NCBI GenBank assembly: GCA_038144855.1
Contig: JAYQOO010000005.1
Location: forward strand, 9,248-73,247
From: Acidimicrobiia bacterium
GTDB taxonomy: Bacteria > Acidobacteriota > Vicinamibacteria > Vicinamibacterales > UBA2999
Reading direction: 5' to 3'
DNA: 64,000 bases
Program-made: the position numbers and the translations under genes
The notes under the pieces: generated by a model
What the model saw: only the letters and a program-made list of their open reading frames with translations
The model's database searches: none
Told to the model about the DNA's origin: nothing
Shown: positions 27,071 to 57,749 of the stretch, piece by piece
Layout of the letters: each line of letters begins with the position of its first letter
Position numbering within the stretch: the first letter of the stretch is position 1

Positions 27071-27094
27071 TTCGCCTGTTCGCCTGTTCGCCTA
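27071..27094. repeat. octamer tandem repeat TTCGCCTG x3 filling the spacer between two SDR genes
   Basis: TTCGCCTG TTCGCCTG TTCGCCTA. The last unit contains the upstream gene's TAG. The downstream ATG is 8 nt away. Confidence 0.85.
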
Positions 27095-28066
27095 CTTCTT
27101 CCCCGCCACCGCGTCGTAGTTCTCGCGATACCAGGCCACCGCCTGCGACACGCCGGCCTCGAGCGATACCGTCGGACGGTAGCCGAGCAGCGTCATCGCC
27201 TTGTCGATCGCGGGGACGCGCAGTTCGACCTCCGGTCCCGGGTGCGGCTTGAAGACGATTTCAGACTTCGAGTTGGTGAGGCGGATGATCAGGTTCGCGA
27301 GTTCGAAGTTGGTCGCCGTGCCCTGCGGGTTGCCGATGTTGAAGGCGTGACCAATCGCGGCCGGGTTCTCGCAGCAGCGCAGCACGCCATCGCAGAAGTC
27401 GGTCACGAAGCACCACGAACGGATCTGCGTGCCGTCGTTGTAGAGCGTGATCGGCAGGTCGCGAAGCGCCTGCAGCGTCATGCCGCGGATGGCGCCGTCA
27501 CCGACCTGGCGCGGACCGTAGACGTTGAAGGGACGAACGATCGCGAGCGGCAGCTTGTCTTCGCGGTAGTGCGCGTACGACAGATGTTCCGACGCCAGCT
27601 TGCTGGCGGCGTAGACCCAGCGGCTTTCACCGATCGGACCGATCGGCGTGAAGTCGTCTTCCTTCCCCTTGTGGATGAACGAACCGTAGACCTCGCTGGT
27701 CGAGAACTCCACGAACCGCTCGACGCCGACTTCGAGCGCCGCCTTCACGACCTGGTGCGTGCCGAGCATGTTCACTTCCATGGTCCGCACGGCGCTGCGG
27801 TCGACGGTGTAGACCCCGGCGATGGCCGCGCAATGAATCACCACCTGGCAACCGTCAATCGCCTGCCGCACGCCCGCGAAGTCGAGCACGTCGCCCTTGA
27901 TGAAGGTCAGGTTCTTGTGACCTTCAAGGTGCGCGAACTGCAGGGCGTTGCGATGCAGGTTGTCGAACACCACCACCTGGTTGTGCTCGACGAGCTGGGA
28001 CACGAGGTGCGAACCGATAAAACCGGCACCACCGGTGACAAAGATGCGCTTATTGGTCAGAGCCAT
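27092..28066 (-). CDS. NAD-dependent nucleotide-sugar epimerase/dehydratase (SDR)
   Basis: KRIFVTGGAGFIGSHLVSQLV...YAASKLASEHL (YxxxK). Confidence 0.85.
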   Translation of the reverse strand: MALTNKRIFVTGGAGFIGSHLVSQLVEHNQVVVFDNLHRNALQFAHLEGHKNLTFIKGDVLDFAGVRQAIDGCQVVIHCAAIAGVYTVDRSAVRTMEVNMLGTHQVVKAALEVGVERFVEFSTSEVYGSFIHKGKEDDFTPIGPIGESRWVYAASKLASEHLSYAHYREDKLPLAIVRPFNVYGPRQVGDGAIRGMTLQALRDLPITLYNDGTQIRSWCFVTDFCDGVLRCCENPAAIGHAFNIGNPQGTATNFELANLIIRLTNSKSEIVFKPHPGPEVELRVPAIDKAMTLLGYRPTVSLEAGVSQAVAWYRENYDAVAGKK

Positions 28067-28078
28067 GAATCAAATGCC

Positions 28079-28792
28079 TCAGGAATGTTTGCCGTTCGTC
28101 GTCGTGCGTGGAGTCGACCGCAGGCGCTTCGGCGCGGTTTCGGGCTCCTTGCGCAGCGGGAATTGCTTGTCTTTCGGAACGTCGGCGCGGGCCAGATCCG
28201 CCGTGGGTTGCCCCGATCGGTCGAGCGTGGCGACGATCATCAAGTCGTATTCAACGTCGCCGTGAGCCGCGATCGGCCGCACCGGCATGCCGAGAAATTC
28301 GCGACCGCCATCCTGGTCGAAGATCGCCACCGGTTCCAGGCCCGATTCCTTCAGCGACAGGTATGCCAGTTCGGCGGCTTCGCCGGTGCCGTAGATCGCC
28401 ACCCGCTTGCCGGCCGCCGCGCAATCCTGCATCGCCTCCCGCAGGTGCTGGCGAACCTCGCCGTAAAGGTGGAGCGAATAGTCCATGAACTCGTACGTCA
28501 ACCGGGCCTTCTCGGCGATGCCACGAGGCGTGATCAGGTACGAGATGCGGTTGGGCTGAACGTTGACGCACTTGATGTAGCCCTTGTGGATCATCCGCTT
28601 CAGGTAGATGTTGGCGAGCCCCAGGGCGATGCCCAGTTGACTGGCCAGGCCGCGCTGGGTGACGCGCGAGTCCTCGTGCACGGCCTCCAGCAGTCGCAGG
28701 TCGCGATGTGCTTCGACGTCCATGGCTTTCACGTTCTGTCTTACGTTGTCGTTCAAGGACTTAGCGCCCGCCGGAAGCGGGCAGGACTTCAT
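28079..28792 (-). CDS. winged-helix (MarR-like, EPS-associated) regulator with a C-terminal Rossmann-like domain
   Basis: LLEAVHEDSRVTQRGLASQLGIALGLANIYLKRMIHKGYIK (wHTH), then GKRVAIYGTGEAAELAYLSLKESGLEPVAIFD. An alternative start is the ATG at 28723 (MDVEAHRDL). Confidence 0.65.
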   Translation of the reverse strand: MKSCPLPAGAKSLNDNVRQNVKAMDVEAHRDLRLLEAVHEDSRVTQRGLASQLGIALGLANIYLKRMIHKGYIKCVNVQPNRISYLITPRGIAEKARLTYEFMDYSLHLYGEVRQHLREAMQDCAAAGKRVAIYGTGEAAELAYLSLKESGLEPVAIFDQDGGREFLGMPVRPIAAHGDVEYDLMIVATLDRSGQPTADLARADVPKDKQFPLRKEPETAPKRLRSTPRTTTNGKHS

Positions 28793-28815
28793 GACACTGG
28801 CGAGGCGAAGCCTCG

Positions 28816-55277: not shown

Positions 55278-55441
55278 TCAAGGACTTACCGATTGTATCG
55301 GCATCCTCTGGCTTTGTCGATGCGAGTCGCCCGATCGGCCCTCTGGCGGTGACCCTTCACAAACTTGTACAATTTGTCGTTTGCCTTGGGCCCGATTCGG
55401 GGCTACAGATGGGGCAGCAACGAACTGGAGGACTGACAGGG

Positions 55442-56434
55442 ATGGCCATCAAGGTTGGTATCAACGGGTTCGGACGCATCGGCCGCAACATTCTTCGCGC
55501 GGCACTCGCCCATCACGACGTCGACATTGTCGCCGTCAATGACCTTGCCGACACGGCCACACTGGCGCACCTGCTCAAGTACGACTCGGTCCTCGGCAAC
55601 TTGTCGGTGCCGGTGAGCGCGTCGGGCGACACCATCAAGGTCGGCAGCGACTCCTTCAAGGTGTTCGCGCAAAAGGATCCTGCGCTGCTGCCGTGGAAGG
55701 ACGTGGGCGTCGACATCGTATTCGAGTCGACCGGCCGCTTCACCAAGCGCGACGACGCGGCCAAGCACCTGGCCGGCGGCGCCAAGAAGGTGATCGTCAC
55801 CGCGCCGGCGACCAATCCGGACGTGACCGTCGTGCTCGGTGTCAACGACGGCGACTACGACGCGTCGAAGCACTCGATCATTTCCAACGCCTCGTGCACC
55901 ACCAACTGCCTTGCGCCGCTCGCCAAGGTCCTCCACGAATCCTTCGGAATCAAGAAGGGCTGGATGACGACGGTGCATGCCTATACGAACGACCAGAACC
56001 TGCTCGACCTGCCGCACAAGGACCTGCGCCGCGCGCGGGCGGCGGCGATGTCGATCATCCCGACCACCACCGGAGCGGCCAAGGCGGTTGGCGAAGTGAT
56101 GCCGGCGCTCAAGGGCCGGATCGACGGCATCTCGATGCGCGTGCCGACGCCGAACGTGTCGGTCGTCGACCTGGTCGCGCTGTTCGACAAGAAGGTGACC
56201 GCCGAGGAGGTCAACGCGGCGCTGAAGAGCGCCTCGGAAGGCCCGCTGCGAGGCATCATGCAGTTTGTGACCGATCCGCTGGTCTCGATCGACTTCCGTG
56301 GCAACCCGCATTCGTCGATCATCGACGCCGCCTACACCAAGGTGATGGACGGCGACTTCGTGAAAGTCATGGCGTGGTACGACAACGAGTGGGGCTACTC
56401 GAACCGCTGCGTTGATCTGCTGAAGAAGCTTTAA
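55442..56434 (+). CDS. gap: glyceraldehyde-3-phosphate dehydrogenase (start revised)
   Basis: [22 protein letters not shown]...[17 protein letters not shown]...WYDNEWGYS. Confidence 0.95.
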
Positions 56435-56479
56435 CTCCCAGCTCCGATAGGGCGAACCGTCAGGTTCGCCCGTGACACG

Positions 56480-57679
56480 ATGGCCAAATATTCGATCAAG
56501 GACCTCGATCTCCGGGGCAAGCGGGTCTTCATCCGCGTCGACTTCAACGTGCCGATCAAGAACGGCGCGATCACCGACGACACCCGCATTACCTCATCGT
56601 TGCCCACGATCCGCTTCGCCCTTGATCAGGGCGCAACGGTCATCCTCGCTTCGCACCTCGGCCGGCCCAAGGGCAAACCCACGCCGGAGTTTTCGCTCAA
56701 GCCCGTGGCCGATCGCCTGAGCCAGTTGCTGGGGCGCGACGTCGTGTTTGCCGCCGACTGCATCGGCGCGCCTGCCAGGTCGGCGGTCGCCTCTGCGCAC
56801 GGCGGTTCACACGTCGCCTTGCTCGAGAACCTGCGATTCCACGCGGCCGAGGAAAAGAACGATCCGGCCTTCGCGGCCAGCCTCGCCGAACTGGCCGATC
56901 TGTACGTCAACGACGCGTTCGGCGCCGCGCACCGCGCGCATGCGTCGGTCGACGGCATCGTGTCGCACTTCCCAGGCAACCGCGCGGCGGCCGGCCTGCT
57001 GATGGACAAGGAACTGCAGTATCTCGGCATGGCGCTCGGCGATCCCGAACGTCCGTTCGTGGCCGTGATCGGTGGCGCAAAGGTCTCCGACAAGATCGAA
57101 GTCATCGAGAGCATGATGGGCCGCGTCGATCGATTGCTGATCGGCGGCGCCATGGCCTACACGTTTTTCAAGGCGCTTGGCATGCCCGTCGGCAAATCGC
57201 TGGTCGAGGACGACAAGCAGGATGCGGCGCGCTCGATCATCGAACACGCCAAGGCGCGCGGCGTCGTGCTGCAACTGCCCGTCGATCACATCGTCGCCGA
57301 CACGCTTGACGCCAACGCGGCAACCGCGGTGCTGAAGGTCGGCGATGCGGCAATCGGTGAGCGGATGGGCCTGGACATTGGCCCCGAGAGCGCCCGGCTG
57401 TATGCGGGCTTGCTGGCCGACGCCAGGACGGTGGTCTGGAACGGGCCCATGGGCGTGTTCGAAATGGCGCCCTTTGCGAACGGGACCCTGGCGGTTGCCA
57501 AAGCGGTCGCGGCCGTGACGGGTACGACCATCATCGGCGGCGGCGATTCAGTGGCGGCCATCAACGCGGCCGGTGTTGCGGATAAGATGACGCACATCTC
57601 GACCGGCGGCGGCGCCTCGCTCGAATTCCTGGGCGGCGCCGAACTCCCGGGCGTGGCAGCGTTGCCGAACAAGAACTGA
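56480..57679 (+). CDS. pgk: phosphoglycerate kinase
   Basis: [24 protein letters not shown]...[11 protein letters not shown]...[13 protein letters not shown]. Confidence 0.95.
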
Positions 57680-57749
57680 TGACTGACGACCGAACTGCAG
57701 ACTGTTGATCGCACACTCTTAACTGCCGACTGTCGACTGCAGACTGATG
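57675..57749. repeat. eight ACTGNNG heptamers in three blocks spanning the pgk-tpiA spacer
   Basis: ACTGATG ACTGACG (57675-57688), ACTGCAG ACTGTTG (57694-57707), ACTGCCG ACTGTCG ACTGCAG ACTGATG (57722-57749). The first unit holds the pgk TGA and the last holds the tpiA ATG. Confidence 0.85.

Follow-up and report, generated by a model that had tools for sequence, protein, structure and literature searches.

Introduction

Tandem arrays of heptamers were recognized in cyanobacteria around 1990 and, from 2007 onward, in many genomes; to our knowledge, neither their origin nor any function has been established. Here we analyze arrays of 7- and 8-nt units in a 64,000-nt stretch of DNA from the order Vicinamibacterales (Acidobacteriota), comprising positions 9,248 to 73,247 of contig JAYQOO010000005.1 in assembly GCA_038144855.1, and hereafter called the window. 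The arrays lie between genes and also, in frame, within genes for lipid A and lipopolysaccharide (LPS) core synthesis. Comparison with described systems leads us to regard them as long simple-sequence repeats (LSSRs), a known class, in a new host clade of Vicinamibacterales.

Heptamers are the commonest LSSRs in most prokaryotic genomes, and polymerase slippage has been proposed to account for them (Mrazek 2007, as summarized in PMC4679880 and PMC4692102). The arrays of GGGAATC in Xanthomonas and of GGGGA(C/T)T in Nostoc show a preference for four units, are enriched between co-oriented and depleted between divergent open reading frames (ORFs), lie near stop and start codons, occur as inverted pairs, and vary between related species, with no link to gene function and no identified role (Rehm 2015, PMC4692102). 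TAACTGA repeats occur in marine Beggiatoaceae, where they immediately precede start codons, and also in some cyanobacteria and Bacteroidetes (MacGregor 2015, PMC4679880). Our literature search found no paper linking Vicinamibacter or Vicinamibacterales to tandem repeats.

Results

Arrays in the window exceed chance expectation

Arrays were called in the window with Tandem Repeats Finder (TRF), and the sequences were then read directly. Five strong arrays of 7- to 8-nt units were present when we counted periods of 7–9 with at least three copies and a score of at least 40, whereas 200 dinucleotide-preserving shuffles of the window gave a mean of 0.065 (maximum 1). TRF placed them at 27067–27093 (CCTGTTCG, 3.4 copies), 39444–39480 (GCCTGTTC, 4.6 copies), 48435–48470 (GATGGCCC, 4.5 copies, perfect), 52015–52047 (CCCTGAT, 4.7 copies) and 53271–53300 (TCCCTGA, 4.3 copies, perfect). 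A sixth, degenerate array (ACTGNNG, 57694–57746) reaches a score of 57 at period 14. With 3.4–4.7 copies, the window arrays thus have the chance-exceeding, head-to-tail units of 5–11 nt that characterize the LSSR class. Two units recur at unlinked sites, as the original prediction, made from the window sequence alone, had noted: CAGGCGAA at 27067 and 39444, and ATCAGGG at 52015 and 53271. Read on the coding strand, the units AGGCGAAC / CAGGCCAA, ATCGGGCC and ATCAGGG form one related family, roughly A[AT]C[AG]GG[CG]C.

The same prediction had counted at least eight repeat loci in 31 kb, and two of these fare less well than the five strong arrays and the degenerate one. Degenerate AGGCAC-containing 8- to 9-mers at 35015–35046 (minus strand, 3.7 copies, TRF score 36), in a co-directional spacer and about 30–60 nt upstream of where an SDR gene probably starts, are borderline; shuffles yield 0.6 arrays per window at a score of at least 30. 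A pair of ACTTTGAAC copies at 34116–34145 (minus strand), where 39 nt separate an SDR gene from a transketolase-like gene, is at chance level, with about 10.9 such 9-mer pairs per shuffled window. A further TRF hit at 49797–49823 is conserved rfaE coding sequence (CGCGCTA) that recurs in relatives, and falls outside this repeat class.

Assembly artefacts can be rejected as the source of the arrays. Over those at 27067, 48435 and 52015, the window has 100% identity with Logan contigs assembled independently from three runs (SRR26337511, SRR26337512 and SRR26337522); the array at 27064–27093 is identical in contigs L085 and L086, and that at 52015–52047 in contig L084. Moreover, the units are present in relatives, and arrays of this class recur in metagenome-assembled genomes (MAGs) built from short reads and from long reads. 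Contig L086 (window 27064–28145) begins at the exact first base of the array at 27064–27091, and short-read assemblies, judged from this contig end, may tend to break at these arrays. The units are 7–8 nt long and abut directly, with no spacers, and so are not CRISPRs (24- to 48-nt repeats with unique spacers), as had been predicted. An Rfam search of the window matched two tRNAs only.

Related loci show intergenic enrichment and avoidance of divergent spacers

A scan of one genome per species gave 80 loci around the heptosyltransferase I gene, hepI. About 54 of these, totaling 933 kb, share the cluster tpiA-pgk-gap <> waaA-lpxK-lpxL-waaF-...-rfaE-hepI-PEMT. Burkholderia-type variable-number tandem repeats had been suggested by GC content, but family scores and the named heptosyltransferase I homologues, which are from Vicinamibacterales, pointed to that order. 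Seven loci come from MAGs labeled Cyanobacteriota, Bifidobacteriaceae or Acidimicrobiia (L005, L006, L008, L016, L036, L037 and L054), yet share the Vicinamibacterales gene order with 42–67% HepI identity; these contigs are probably mis-binned or wrongly labeled by taxon.

With a cut-off of at least three copies, at least 80% matches and a TRF score of at least 40, the 54 Vicinamibacterales-like loci contain 1, 2, 53, 24, 10, 4 and 2 arrays of periods 5 to 11, respectively, with heptamers exceeding all neighboring unit lengths. Among the 87 arrays of period 7–9, 61 (70%) are intergenic, compared with 12.4 expected where 86% of bases are coding (P = 5e-32), and ten further arrays lie within 45 nt of a stop codon. 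This census bears out the preference of these non-triplet units for gene junctions that the original prediction had claimed. Arrays occur at 0.69 per kb of co-directional spacer, 0.61 per kb of convergent spacer and 0.10 per kb of divergent spacer; only 2 were seen in divergent spacers versus 10.8 expected (P = 6e-4). Enrichment between co-oriented genes and depletion between divergent ones is thus shared with the repeats of Rehm 2015. The median array lies 8 nt from the upstream stop codon, and arrays start at or over that stop. Because start codons called by our codon-usage gene model are often too far downstream, distance to the start is confounded, and we set aside the comparison of nearness to stop and to start.

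The arrays are largely confined to one clade. In 396 kb around hepI from outgroup phyla (Rokubacteria, Planctomycetota, Pyrinomonadaceae and others) we found two arrays of period 7 and one of period 8, and Vicinamibacteraceae proper (L046–L056, GC above 0.72) are also array-poor, which restricts the phenomenon to a clade within Vicinamibacterales. A perfect octamer array in an outgroup member of Planctomycetota (GTGTCTGT, 10.8 copies, L078:18106-18191) indicates that long arrays of 7- to 8-nt units do occur sporadically outside this clade.

Occupation of any given junction is sporadic. Each co-directional junction of the conserved cluster carries an array in 2–27% of genomes, with differing units. 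No array was present at the divergent gap|waaA spacer in any of 41 genomes, or at the overlapping hepI|PEMT junction in any of 51. At rfaE2/hepI, the window and its closest species-level relative, L004, have a 4-nt overlap, and seven other genomes have arrays of seven units, each matching units elsewhere in the same genome. In L007 the array exactly fills the stop-to-start spacer; in L011 the ATGA overlap is kept and the array is translated. Three genomes (L005:9965-10000, L008:9955-10000 and L018:9960-10000) have instead of a tandem array a spacer of about 35 nt, GCCCTGAGCGAGCG[GC]AAGCGAGTCGAAGGGTGA, which reads through as the C-terminal tail ...PALSERKRVEG before a stop codon. It may be another dispersed intergenic repeat family of the clade, or merely conserved orthologous sequence. 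Many of the HepI homologues P0029–P0115 end in variable tails (...GRSLSEGR, ...TRSLGEG, ...LRQGYGGQAPQ) that look like read-through into repeated intergenic sequence and not like conserved protein. In L012, L013, L014 and L017 (9975–10000), a conserved TAAGCT(A/G)T(A/T)(T/C)-type motif resembling a -10 box lies about 10–20 nt upstream of the hepI TTG start, which suggests a separate promoter for hepI in lineages with an array between rfaE2 and this gene.

Units are shared within genomes in both orientations

Arrays from one locus resemble each other far more often than chance allows, with 21 same-locus pairs within one mismatch versus 3.2 expected (maximum 10 in 2000 label permutations). Within these 21- to 64-kb loci, genome-typical units are therefore reused at dispersed sites: ACGGCAG at three sites in L012, AAAGTGC at three in L030, AAATTGT at three in L038, GTGCGAC at two in L039, and both GAACCCGA (three sites) and AAGCCCC (two sites) in L014. 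Similar pairs from the same genome lie on the same strand in 12 cases and on opposite strands in 9, even within one operon, as in L014, where the tpiA/pgk and pgk/gap arrays are mutually inverted. No orientation bias relative to transcription was found within Vicinamibacterales loci. Four inverted pairs of arrays, 22–45 nt apart (L006, L028, L030 and L038), would form long hairpins.

The flanks of same-unit arrays are unrelated, and beside them we saw neither target-site duplications nor terminal inverted repeats, and no associated genes. Given the unrelated flanks, we rejected a larger mobile element surrounding the arrays. The units are also non-palindromic, which, together with these flanks, separates them from repetitive extragenic palindromic (REP) sequences, bacterial interspersed mosaic elements (BIMEs) and MITEs (miniature inverted-repeat transposable elements).

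Arrays differ between species and are invariant within populations

The original prediction had proposed slippage-driven variation and a comparison of copy number at orthologous junctions. Variation of this kind is evident between species. L004, whose HepI is 82% identical to that of the window, has an lpxL/waaF array of the same unit and length (4.7 copies) with the variant unit in another position, and the more distant L087 has 4.3 copies of ATCAGGG there. The lpxK array consists of 4.3 copies of ATCAGGG in the window and 7.4 copies of CGGGAAC in L004, with an intermediate GGGATCC unit, whereas lineages with HepI about 70% identical again have ATCAGGG (8.4 copies in L087, 7.0 in L223). The hepI array is missing from L004 and from all relatives that are 82–86% identical (344 amino acids versus 351 in the window), and amounts to a net gain of seven residues over the closest relatives, at a position hypervariable throughout the order; L087 has 7.2 copies of ATCAGGCC in this gene. 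The empty site in L004 (GCCACCGGCCGGC) resembles the window unit (GCCATCGGGCC), a likeness consistent with local seeding. At tpiA/pgk, L013 has 5.5 copies of AAGACCTC and L014, about 91% identical in its genes, has 5.1 copies of AAGCCCC. The two arrays differ by a 1-nt indel in every unit, which amounts to a switch between periods 7 and 8. At the level of aligned sequences, such cases show concerted evolution of arrays between species.

Within populations, by comparison, no variation was detected. Eight lake metagenomes, which differ from one another by 3–14 single-nucleotide polymorphisms (SNPs) over 8–12 kb, share an identical 7-copy array in lpxK, and metagenome contigs with identical neighboring proteins included no length variant. 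The P0074 population has almost no arrays, and its two lpxK alleles reflect a recombination tract and not repeat slippage. These alleles, which occur among contigs encoding identical HepI (L213:5200-6700 versus L214/L215/L218/L220), differ by about 15–20% over about 1.5 kb of lpxK-lpxL and are near-identical outside, with a second divergent tract about 12 kb further along. Both look like recombination tracts in natural populations.

Arrays inside reading frames

Three window arrays lie in genes for LPS synthesis, as originally predicted, although only two are internal and the third forms a C-terminal tail. In heptosyltransferase I (47818–48873), 4.5 perfect copies of ATCGGGCC at 48435–48470 (minus strand) encode 11 residues. 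In lpxK (52961–53944), 4.3 perfect copies of ATCAGGG at 53271–53300 (minus strand) encode IRDQGSGIRE in a loop of variable length. Finally, 4.7 copies of ATCAGGG at 52015–52047 (minus strand) form the last 11 codons of lpxL (52008–52961), whose stop codon overlaps the waaF start (ATGA at 52008–52011).

Among HepI homologues, the stretch that follows ETVTP varies in length from 0 residues up to about 6 x 8 (such as PSGHQAIR and GPSGSQAV), corresponding to the octamer read in all three frames, and LpxK has a variable low-complexity loop of the same kind in eleven genomes. Both arrays fall at alignment gaps relative to the solved structures of Escherichia coli WaaC and Aquifex aeolicus LpxK. The longest hepI array (L092, 15.9 copies of an octamer) has a 24-nt superperiod, with 90% matches versus 81% at period 8, as would follow if arrays persisted only in steps of three units. 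The 54 hepI orthologues in genome loci are all single full-length matches, and none is frameshifted.

Genes for LPS are not special in this respect. A metagenome scan for (ATCRGGG)3 matched more than 120 contigs with GC contents of 0.40–0.75, and four other enzymes in unrelated contigs have in-frame arrays encoding DQGSGIR: MetH, where the array lies in the linker between domains, iPGM, an ATPase of the ABC-F type and a molybdopterin oxidoreductase. Of the metagenome arrays that are apparently coding, 13 of 16 have the G-rich strand as sense, and of those in co-directional spacers 13 of 19 have the C-rich strand as sense, counts that carry little weight because the codon model was untrained for those taxa.

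Copy number, G-tracts and predicted structure

Copy number has a mode of four in the related loci (36 of 77 arrays), where the detection threshold disfavors arrays of three units. Similarly, G-tracts in the metagenome ATCRGGG arrays peak at four (37 of 85), with a three-unit search pattern that is biased against shorter arrays. Many units look telomere-like, with three or four G residues plus three or four other bases. The array at 52015 contains five G-tracts on the mRNA-sense strand, and the lpxL/waaF sense RNA is predicted to reach its energy minimum as a G-quadruplex (-19.0 versus -13.3 kcal/mol). In the window this fold is predicted for the two ATCAGGG arrays, of which that at 52015 is one, and for none of the other four, and units such as CAGGCGAA, AAATTGT, AAAGTGC and GTGCGAC have neither G-runs nor predicted structure. 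We therefore rejected quadruplex formation as a property common to the arrays.

Gene context in the window

Gene context was derived from NCBIfam and Pfam scans together with the codon-usage gene model; most genes at 0.6–55 kb are on the minus strand. The original prediction held that most arrays fill the few nucleotides between a stop codon and the next start. This is true of two of them. At 27064–27093 (minus strand), 3.4 copies of AGGCGAAC fill the 28-nt spacer between a sugar-nucleotide dehydratase gene (27092–28066, TAG stop at 27092–27094) and an SDR epimerase gene (26134–27063, ATG at 27063), and the dehydratase stop codon sits within the first unit. At 57675–57746 (plus strand), a degenerate (GACTGNN)n array fills the 67-nt pgk/tpiA spacer (TRF period 14, 3.8 copies, score 57; period 7, 3.6 copies, score 36), a junction that has arrays of other units in seven further genomes. 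The LPS gene arrays described above do not conform, since two are internal and one is the lpxL tail. The array at 39444–39480 (minus strand), which consists of two copies of CAGGCCAA followed by two of CAGGCGAA (4.6 copies in total), lies between the holB stop (39487–39489) and the conserved pdxA start, but is in frame with an upstream ATG (39485–39487) that overlaps the holB stop, and may be translated as an N-terminal extension of PdxA. A degenerate orthologous array (AACRGGCS, 4.8 copies) is present at the holB/pdxA junction of L213. Shine-Dalgarno-like AGGGA or AGGGGG sequences, formed by the last array units, lie just upstream of two window start codons.

The duplications predicted in the tRNA-Val/tRNA-Asp spacer (45423–45544, plus strand) are heptamer-like repeats (GATTGAT / ATCAATC / GCAATT) that have decayed and are in part inverted. 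In relatives the orthologue of this spacer has clear arrays, in L012 (CAGATCAC, 4.6 copies), L030 and L038, the latter two as inverted pairs of heptamer arrays.

The first ~24 kb of the window (1–24700) comprises about 22 minus-strand genes with 4-nt or similar overlaps and almost no spacers, and TRF found no 7- to 8-nt arrays in this overlap-coupled operon. The genes include GT4 glycosyltransferases, a carbamoyltransferase, a glycerophosphotransferase-like gene, a PMT_2 protein and several without a family match, and the run looks like a large polysaccharide or exopolysaccharide operon. At 42634–44498 (minus strand), two adjacent ORFs of about 334 and 189–295 amino acids, with no NCBIfam or Pfam match, lie downstream of a heavy-metal-type two-component system (40552–42754). 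The P0074 population (L213) has the gene order hepI-PEMT-holB-pdxA-smpB-..., and hence the 40.5–47.3 kb segment of the window is either missing there or was inserted or rearranged in the window. This segment holds the two-component system, the two ORFs without matches, ppa, tRNA-Val, tRNA-Asp and a GT39-like membrane protein.

Discussion

Relation to described repeats

The arrays share with LSSRs, as these are summarized from Mrazek 2007 in PMC4679880 and PMC4692102, their head-to-tail arrangement, the predominance of heptamers, and an occurrence in large, high-GC genomes of non-pathogens that is mostly non-coding and phylogenetically patchy. They differ in that octamers are nearly half as common as heptamers, and Vicinamibacterales are not among the genomes described in those summaries. 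Their closest counterparts are the GGGNATC repeats (PMC4692102), of which the window units ATCAGGG and ATCGGGCC are near-relatives. The mode of four copies here may parallel their preference for four units, although detection disfavors three. Both sets favor co-oriented junctions and sites near stop or start codons, both avoid divergent spacers, and both include inverted pairs, vary between species at the same junction and show no link to a functional class of genes. However, G-rich units are only one of many families here, and AAATTGT, AAAGTGC and GTGCGAC cannot form quadruplexes; in-frame arrays in enzymes are prominent; and quadruplex formation here is a prediction from sequence.

The original comparison with short tandemly repeated repetitive (STRR) sequences of heterocystous cyanobacteria (Calothrix, Anabaena and Nostoc) was apt. 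In both cases a few genome-typical heptamers occur in tandem, dispersed over many intergenic sites, and the period, genome-specific units, intergenic bias, divergent depletion and mode of about four copies match published STRR-like/GGGNATC repeats (Rehm 2015, PMC4692102). The Vicinamibacterales arrays belong to another phylum, have a high-GC setting, include octamers and use mostly different units. The pgk/tpiA array contains ACTGTTG, the reverse complement of the STRR3 unit CAACAGT. The TAACTGA repeats (PMC4679880) likewise place one heptamer at many intergenic sites in sets of 2–6 copies, often a few nucleotides from a start codon and in some cases within ORFs, but consist of one fixed unit across phyla that is almost always direct, whereas units here vary by genome and occur in both orientations. 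REP/BIME and MITE-type elements resemble the arrays in being genome-specific short intergenic repeats with both orientations and occasional inverted pairs. Unlike these, the arrays are strictly tandem and lack conserved flanks, terminal inverted repeats and target duplications.

Origin and maintenance of the arrays

We consider it reasonably probable (about 0.6) that these 7- to 8-nt arrays are generated by slippage, homogenized by concerted evolution and kept only where insertions are tolerated. Strand slippage or unequal exchange in the course of DNA synthesis would create the arrays and alter them, favoring 7- to 8-nt units strongly and in a lineage-specific manner, and variant units would sweep through an array by concerted evolution, as is evident at tpiA/pgk. 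Selection would remove arrays wherever an insertion is harmful. The pattern of sites at which arrays survive fits this expectation: spacers presumably free of promoters and operators (co-directional, convergent and tRNA-tRNA), the extreme ends of reading frames, and insertion-tolerant surface loops, in the last case only at frame-keeping lengths. Placement at junctions would then be mainly a map of tolerance and not a device for translational coupling. Any function would be secondary and dependent on the unit, such as the predicted G-quadruplex of GGG units on lpxL/waaF mRNA.

Several observations weigh against this explanation. Local slippage leaves the sharing of units among unlinked junctions (21 versus 3.2 pairs, with unrelated flanks) unexplained, and the slippage model does not account for the bias toward 7–8 nt. 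The peak at four G-tracts (37 of 85), seen with a search pattern biased against three-unit arrays and also reported in Rehm 2015, hints at selection for a quadruplex-competent length. The lpxK, lpxL/waaF and holB/pdxA arrays are kept in lineages with HepI about 70% identical, and their long retention could reflect constraint and not neutrality. Moreover, arrays are invariant within populations, so that slippage was not seen directly. Their scarcity in divergent spacers would fit an origin dependent on transcription equally well.

Because unit sharing and the 7- to 8-nt bias are left unexplained, two alternatives stay alive. It is possible, though unlikely, that the arrays are functional cis-elements at gene 3′ ends or between cistrons, acting as G-quadruplexes, i-motifs, hairpins or binding sites of a nucleic-acid-binding protein that evolves fast. 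For the neighboring genes, they would influence termination, the processing or stability of mRNA, or translation, with the unit of each genome co-evolving with its factor. Such a role would account for a common unit at unlinked loci of one genome, and is consistent with array starts at or over the upstream stop codon (median 8 nt), the four-G-tract peak of ATCRGGG arrays, the quadruplex predicted for lpxL/waaF sense RNA, the retention of some arrays across lineages of about 70% identity, the hairpins expected from inverted pairs 22–45 nt apart (including those in the tRNA-Val/tRNA-Asp spacer), and the quadruplexes that GGGAATC repeats form in vitro (Rehm 2015, PMC4692102). It is difficult to reconcile with orthologous junctions that are sporadically occupied by unrelated units, with both orientations in one operon (L014 tpiA/pgk versus pgk/gap), with the many units lacking G-runs or predicted structure and with arrays inside coding loops of unrelated enzymes; Rehm 2015 (PMC4692102) also found no regulatory role, and the confounded distance to start codons removes one potential line of support. 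We judge it quite improbable that the arrays are written or homogenized by an active trans-acting process, such as RNA- or DNA-templated insertion, ectopic gene conversion or a very small mobile element. The strong sharing of units within genomes, in either orientation and between unrelated flanks, speaks for such a process, as do the rfaE2/hepI arrays whose units match others in their own genome (ACGGCAG in L012 and GAACCCGA in L014, three sites each) and the many telomere-like units. However, the hallmarks of insertion (target-site duplications, terminal inverted repeats, associated genes) were not seen, and close relatives differ gradually and inside the array, by unit drift or by a 1-nt indel sweeping through the units. 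ATCAGGG is also common to the lpxK and lpxL/waaF arrays in three lineages, which implies that this sharing is ancient and not continually renewed.

Two further proposals have very little in their favor. LPS glycosyltransferases are classic phase-variable genes of host-adapted pathogens, and non-triplet arrays in hepI, lpxK and the lpxL tail might be contingency loci in which gain or loss of a single unit would shift the frame and turn LPS-core synthesis on or off, for example in phage escape. As in the LPS and lipooligosaccharide glycosyltransferase loci of Haemophilus, Neisseria and Campylobacter, non-triplet repeats (here of 7 and 8 nt) do lie within LPS gene frames, and copy number differs between species (4.3–8.4 in lpxK, 0–15.9 in hepI). 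The units of those phase-variable loci measure 1–5 nt, though, and neither out-of-frame alleles nor within-population length variation was found here: all 54 hepI orthologues are full-length, the 7-copy lpxK array is the same in 8 samples that differ by 3–14 SNPs elsewhere, and the window arrays are identical in 3 runs, albeit in consensus assemblies, which would hide minority variants. Furthermore, most Gram-negative bacteria cannot do without lipid A synthesis, the pathway of lpxK and lpxL. Nor is there an association with genes for surface structures or host interaction, as the same arrays occur in housekeeping enzymes (MetH, iPGM, ABC-F) and beside pgk, tpiA, holB, pdxA and tRNA genes. Switching of this kind therefore seems a remote prospect. 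The original prediction also suggested that, in overlap-coupled operons, the arrays adjust translational coupling through the length of the spacer or the context of the ribosome-binding site, which is just as hard to sustain. Several arrays exactly fill stop-to-start spacers (27064–27091 in the window, rfaE2/hepI in L007), and the last units supply Shine-Dalgarno-like AGGGA or AGGGGG before two window start codons. Nevertheless, arrays also occur between tRNA genes and in convergent spacers, at a density like that of co-directional ones, and in both orientations; many units have no Shine-Dalgarno-like sequence; and orthologous junctions are filled in only 2–27% of genomes, with different units. 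In lpxL/waaF, in L011 rfaE2/hepI and possibly in holB/pdxA, the ATGA overlap is preserved and the array is translated, which leaves the coupling geometry unchanged, and the 22-gene overlap-coupled operon at 1–24 kb has no arrays at all.

Implications

Whichever way they arise, the arrays extend a heptamer phenomenon to a dominant, mostly uncultured soil lineage, and provide a comparative series in which the junctions of a conserved 11-gene cluster are empty or differently filled in dozens of related genomes. New points include the octamers, the many unrelated genome-specific units within one order, concerted evolution that extends to switching between 7 and 8 nt, and arrays that have persisted in frame for a long time within essential enzymes of lipid A and LPS-core synthesis. 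Proteins acquire low-complexity loops (DQGSGIR, PSGHQAIR) and variable tails from the arrays, which also displace predicted starts and stops and may break short-read contigs; they are therefore to be expected when Acidobacteriota MAGs are annotated. A more speculative outcome, which we think doubtful, is that the unit families are the footprint of an active sequence-specific process, either one that writes or homogenizes 7- to 8-nt units or a fast-evolving nucleic-acid-binding protein whose sites they are. If this proves true, Vicinamibacterales would be a comparative system in which STRR-type heptamer arrays could be explained.

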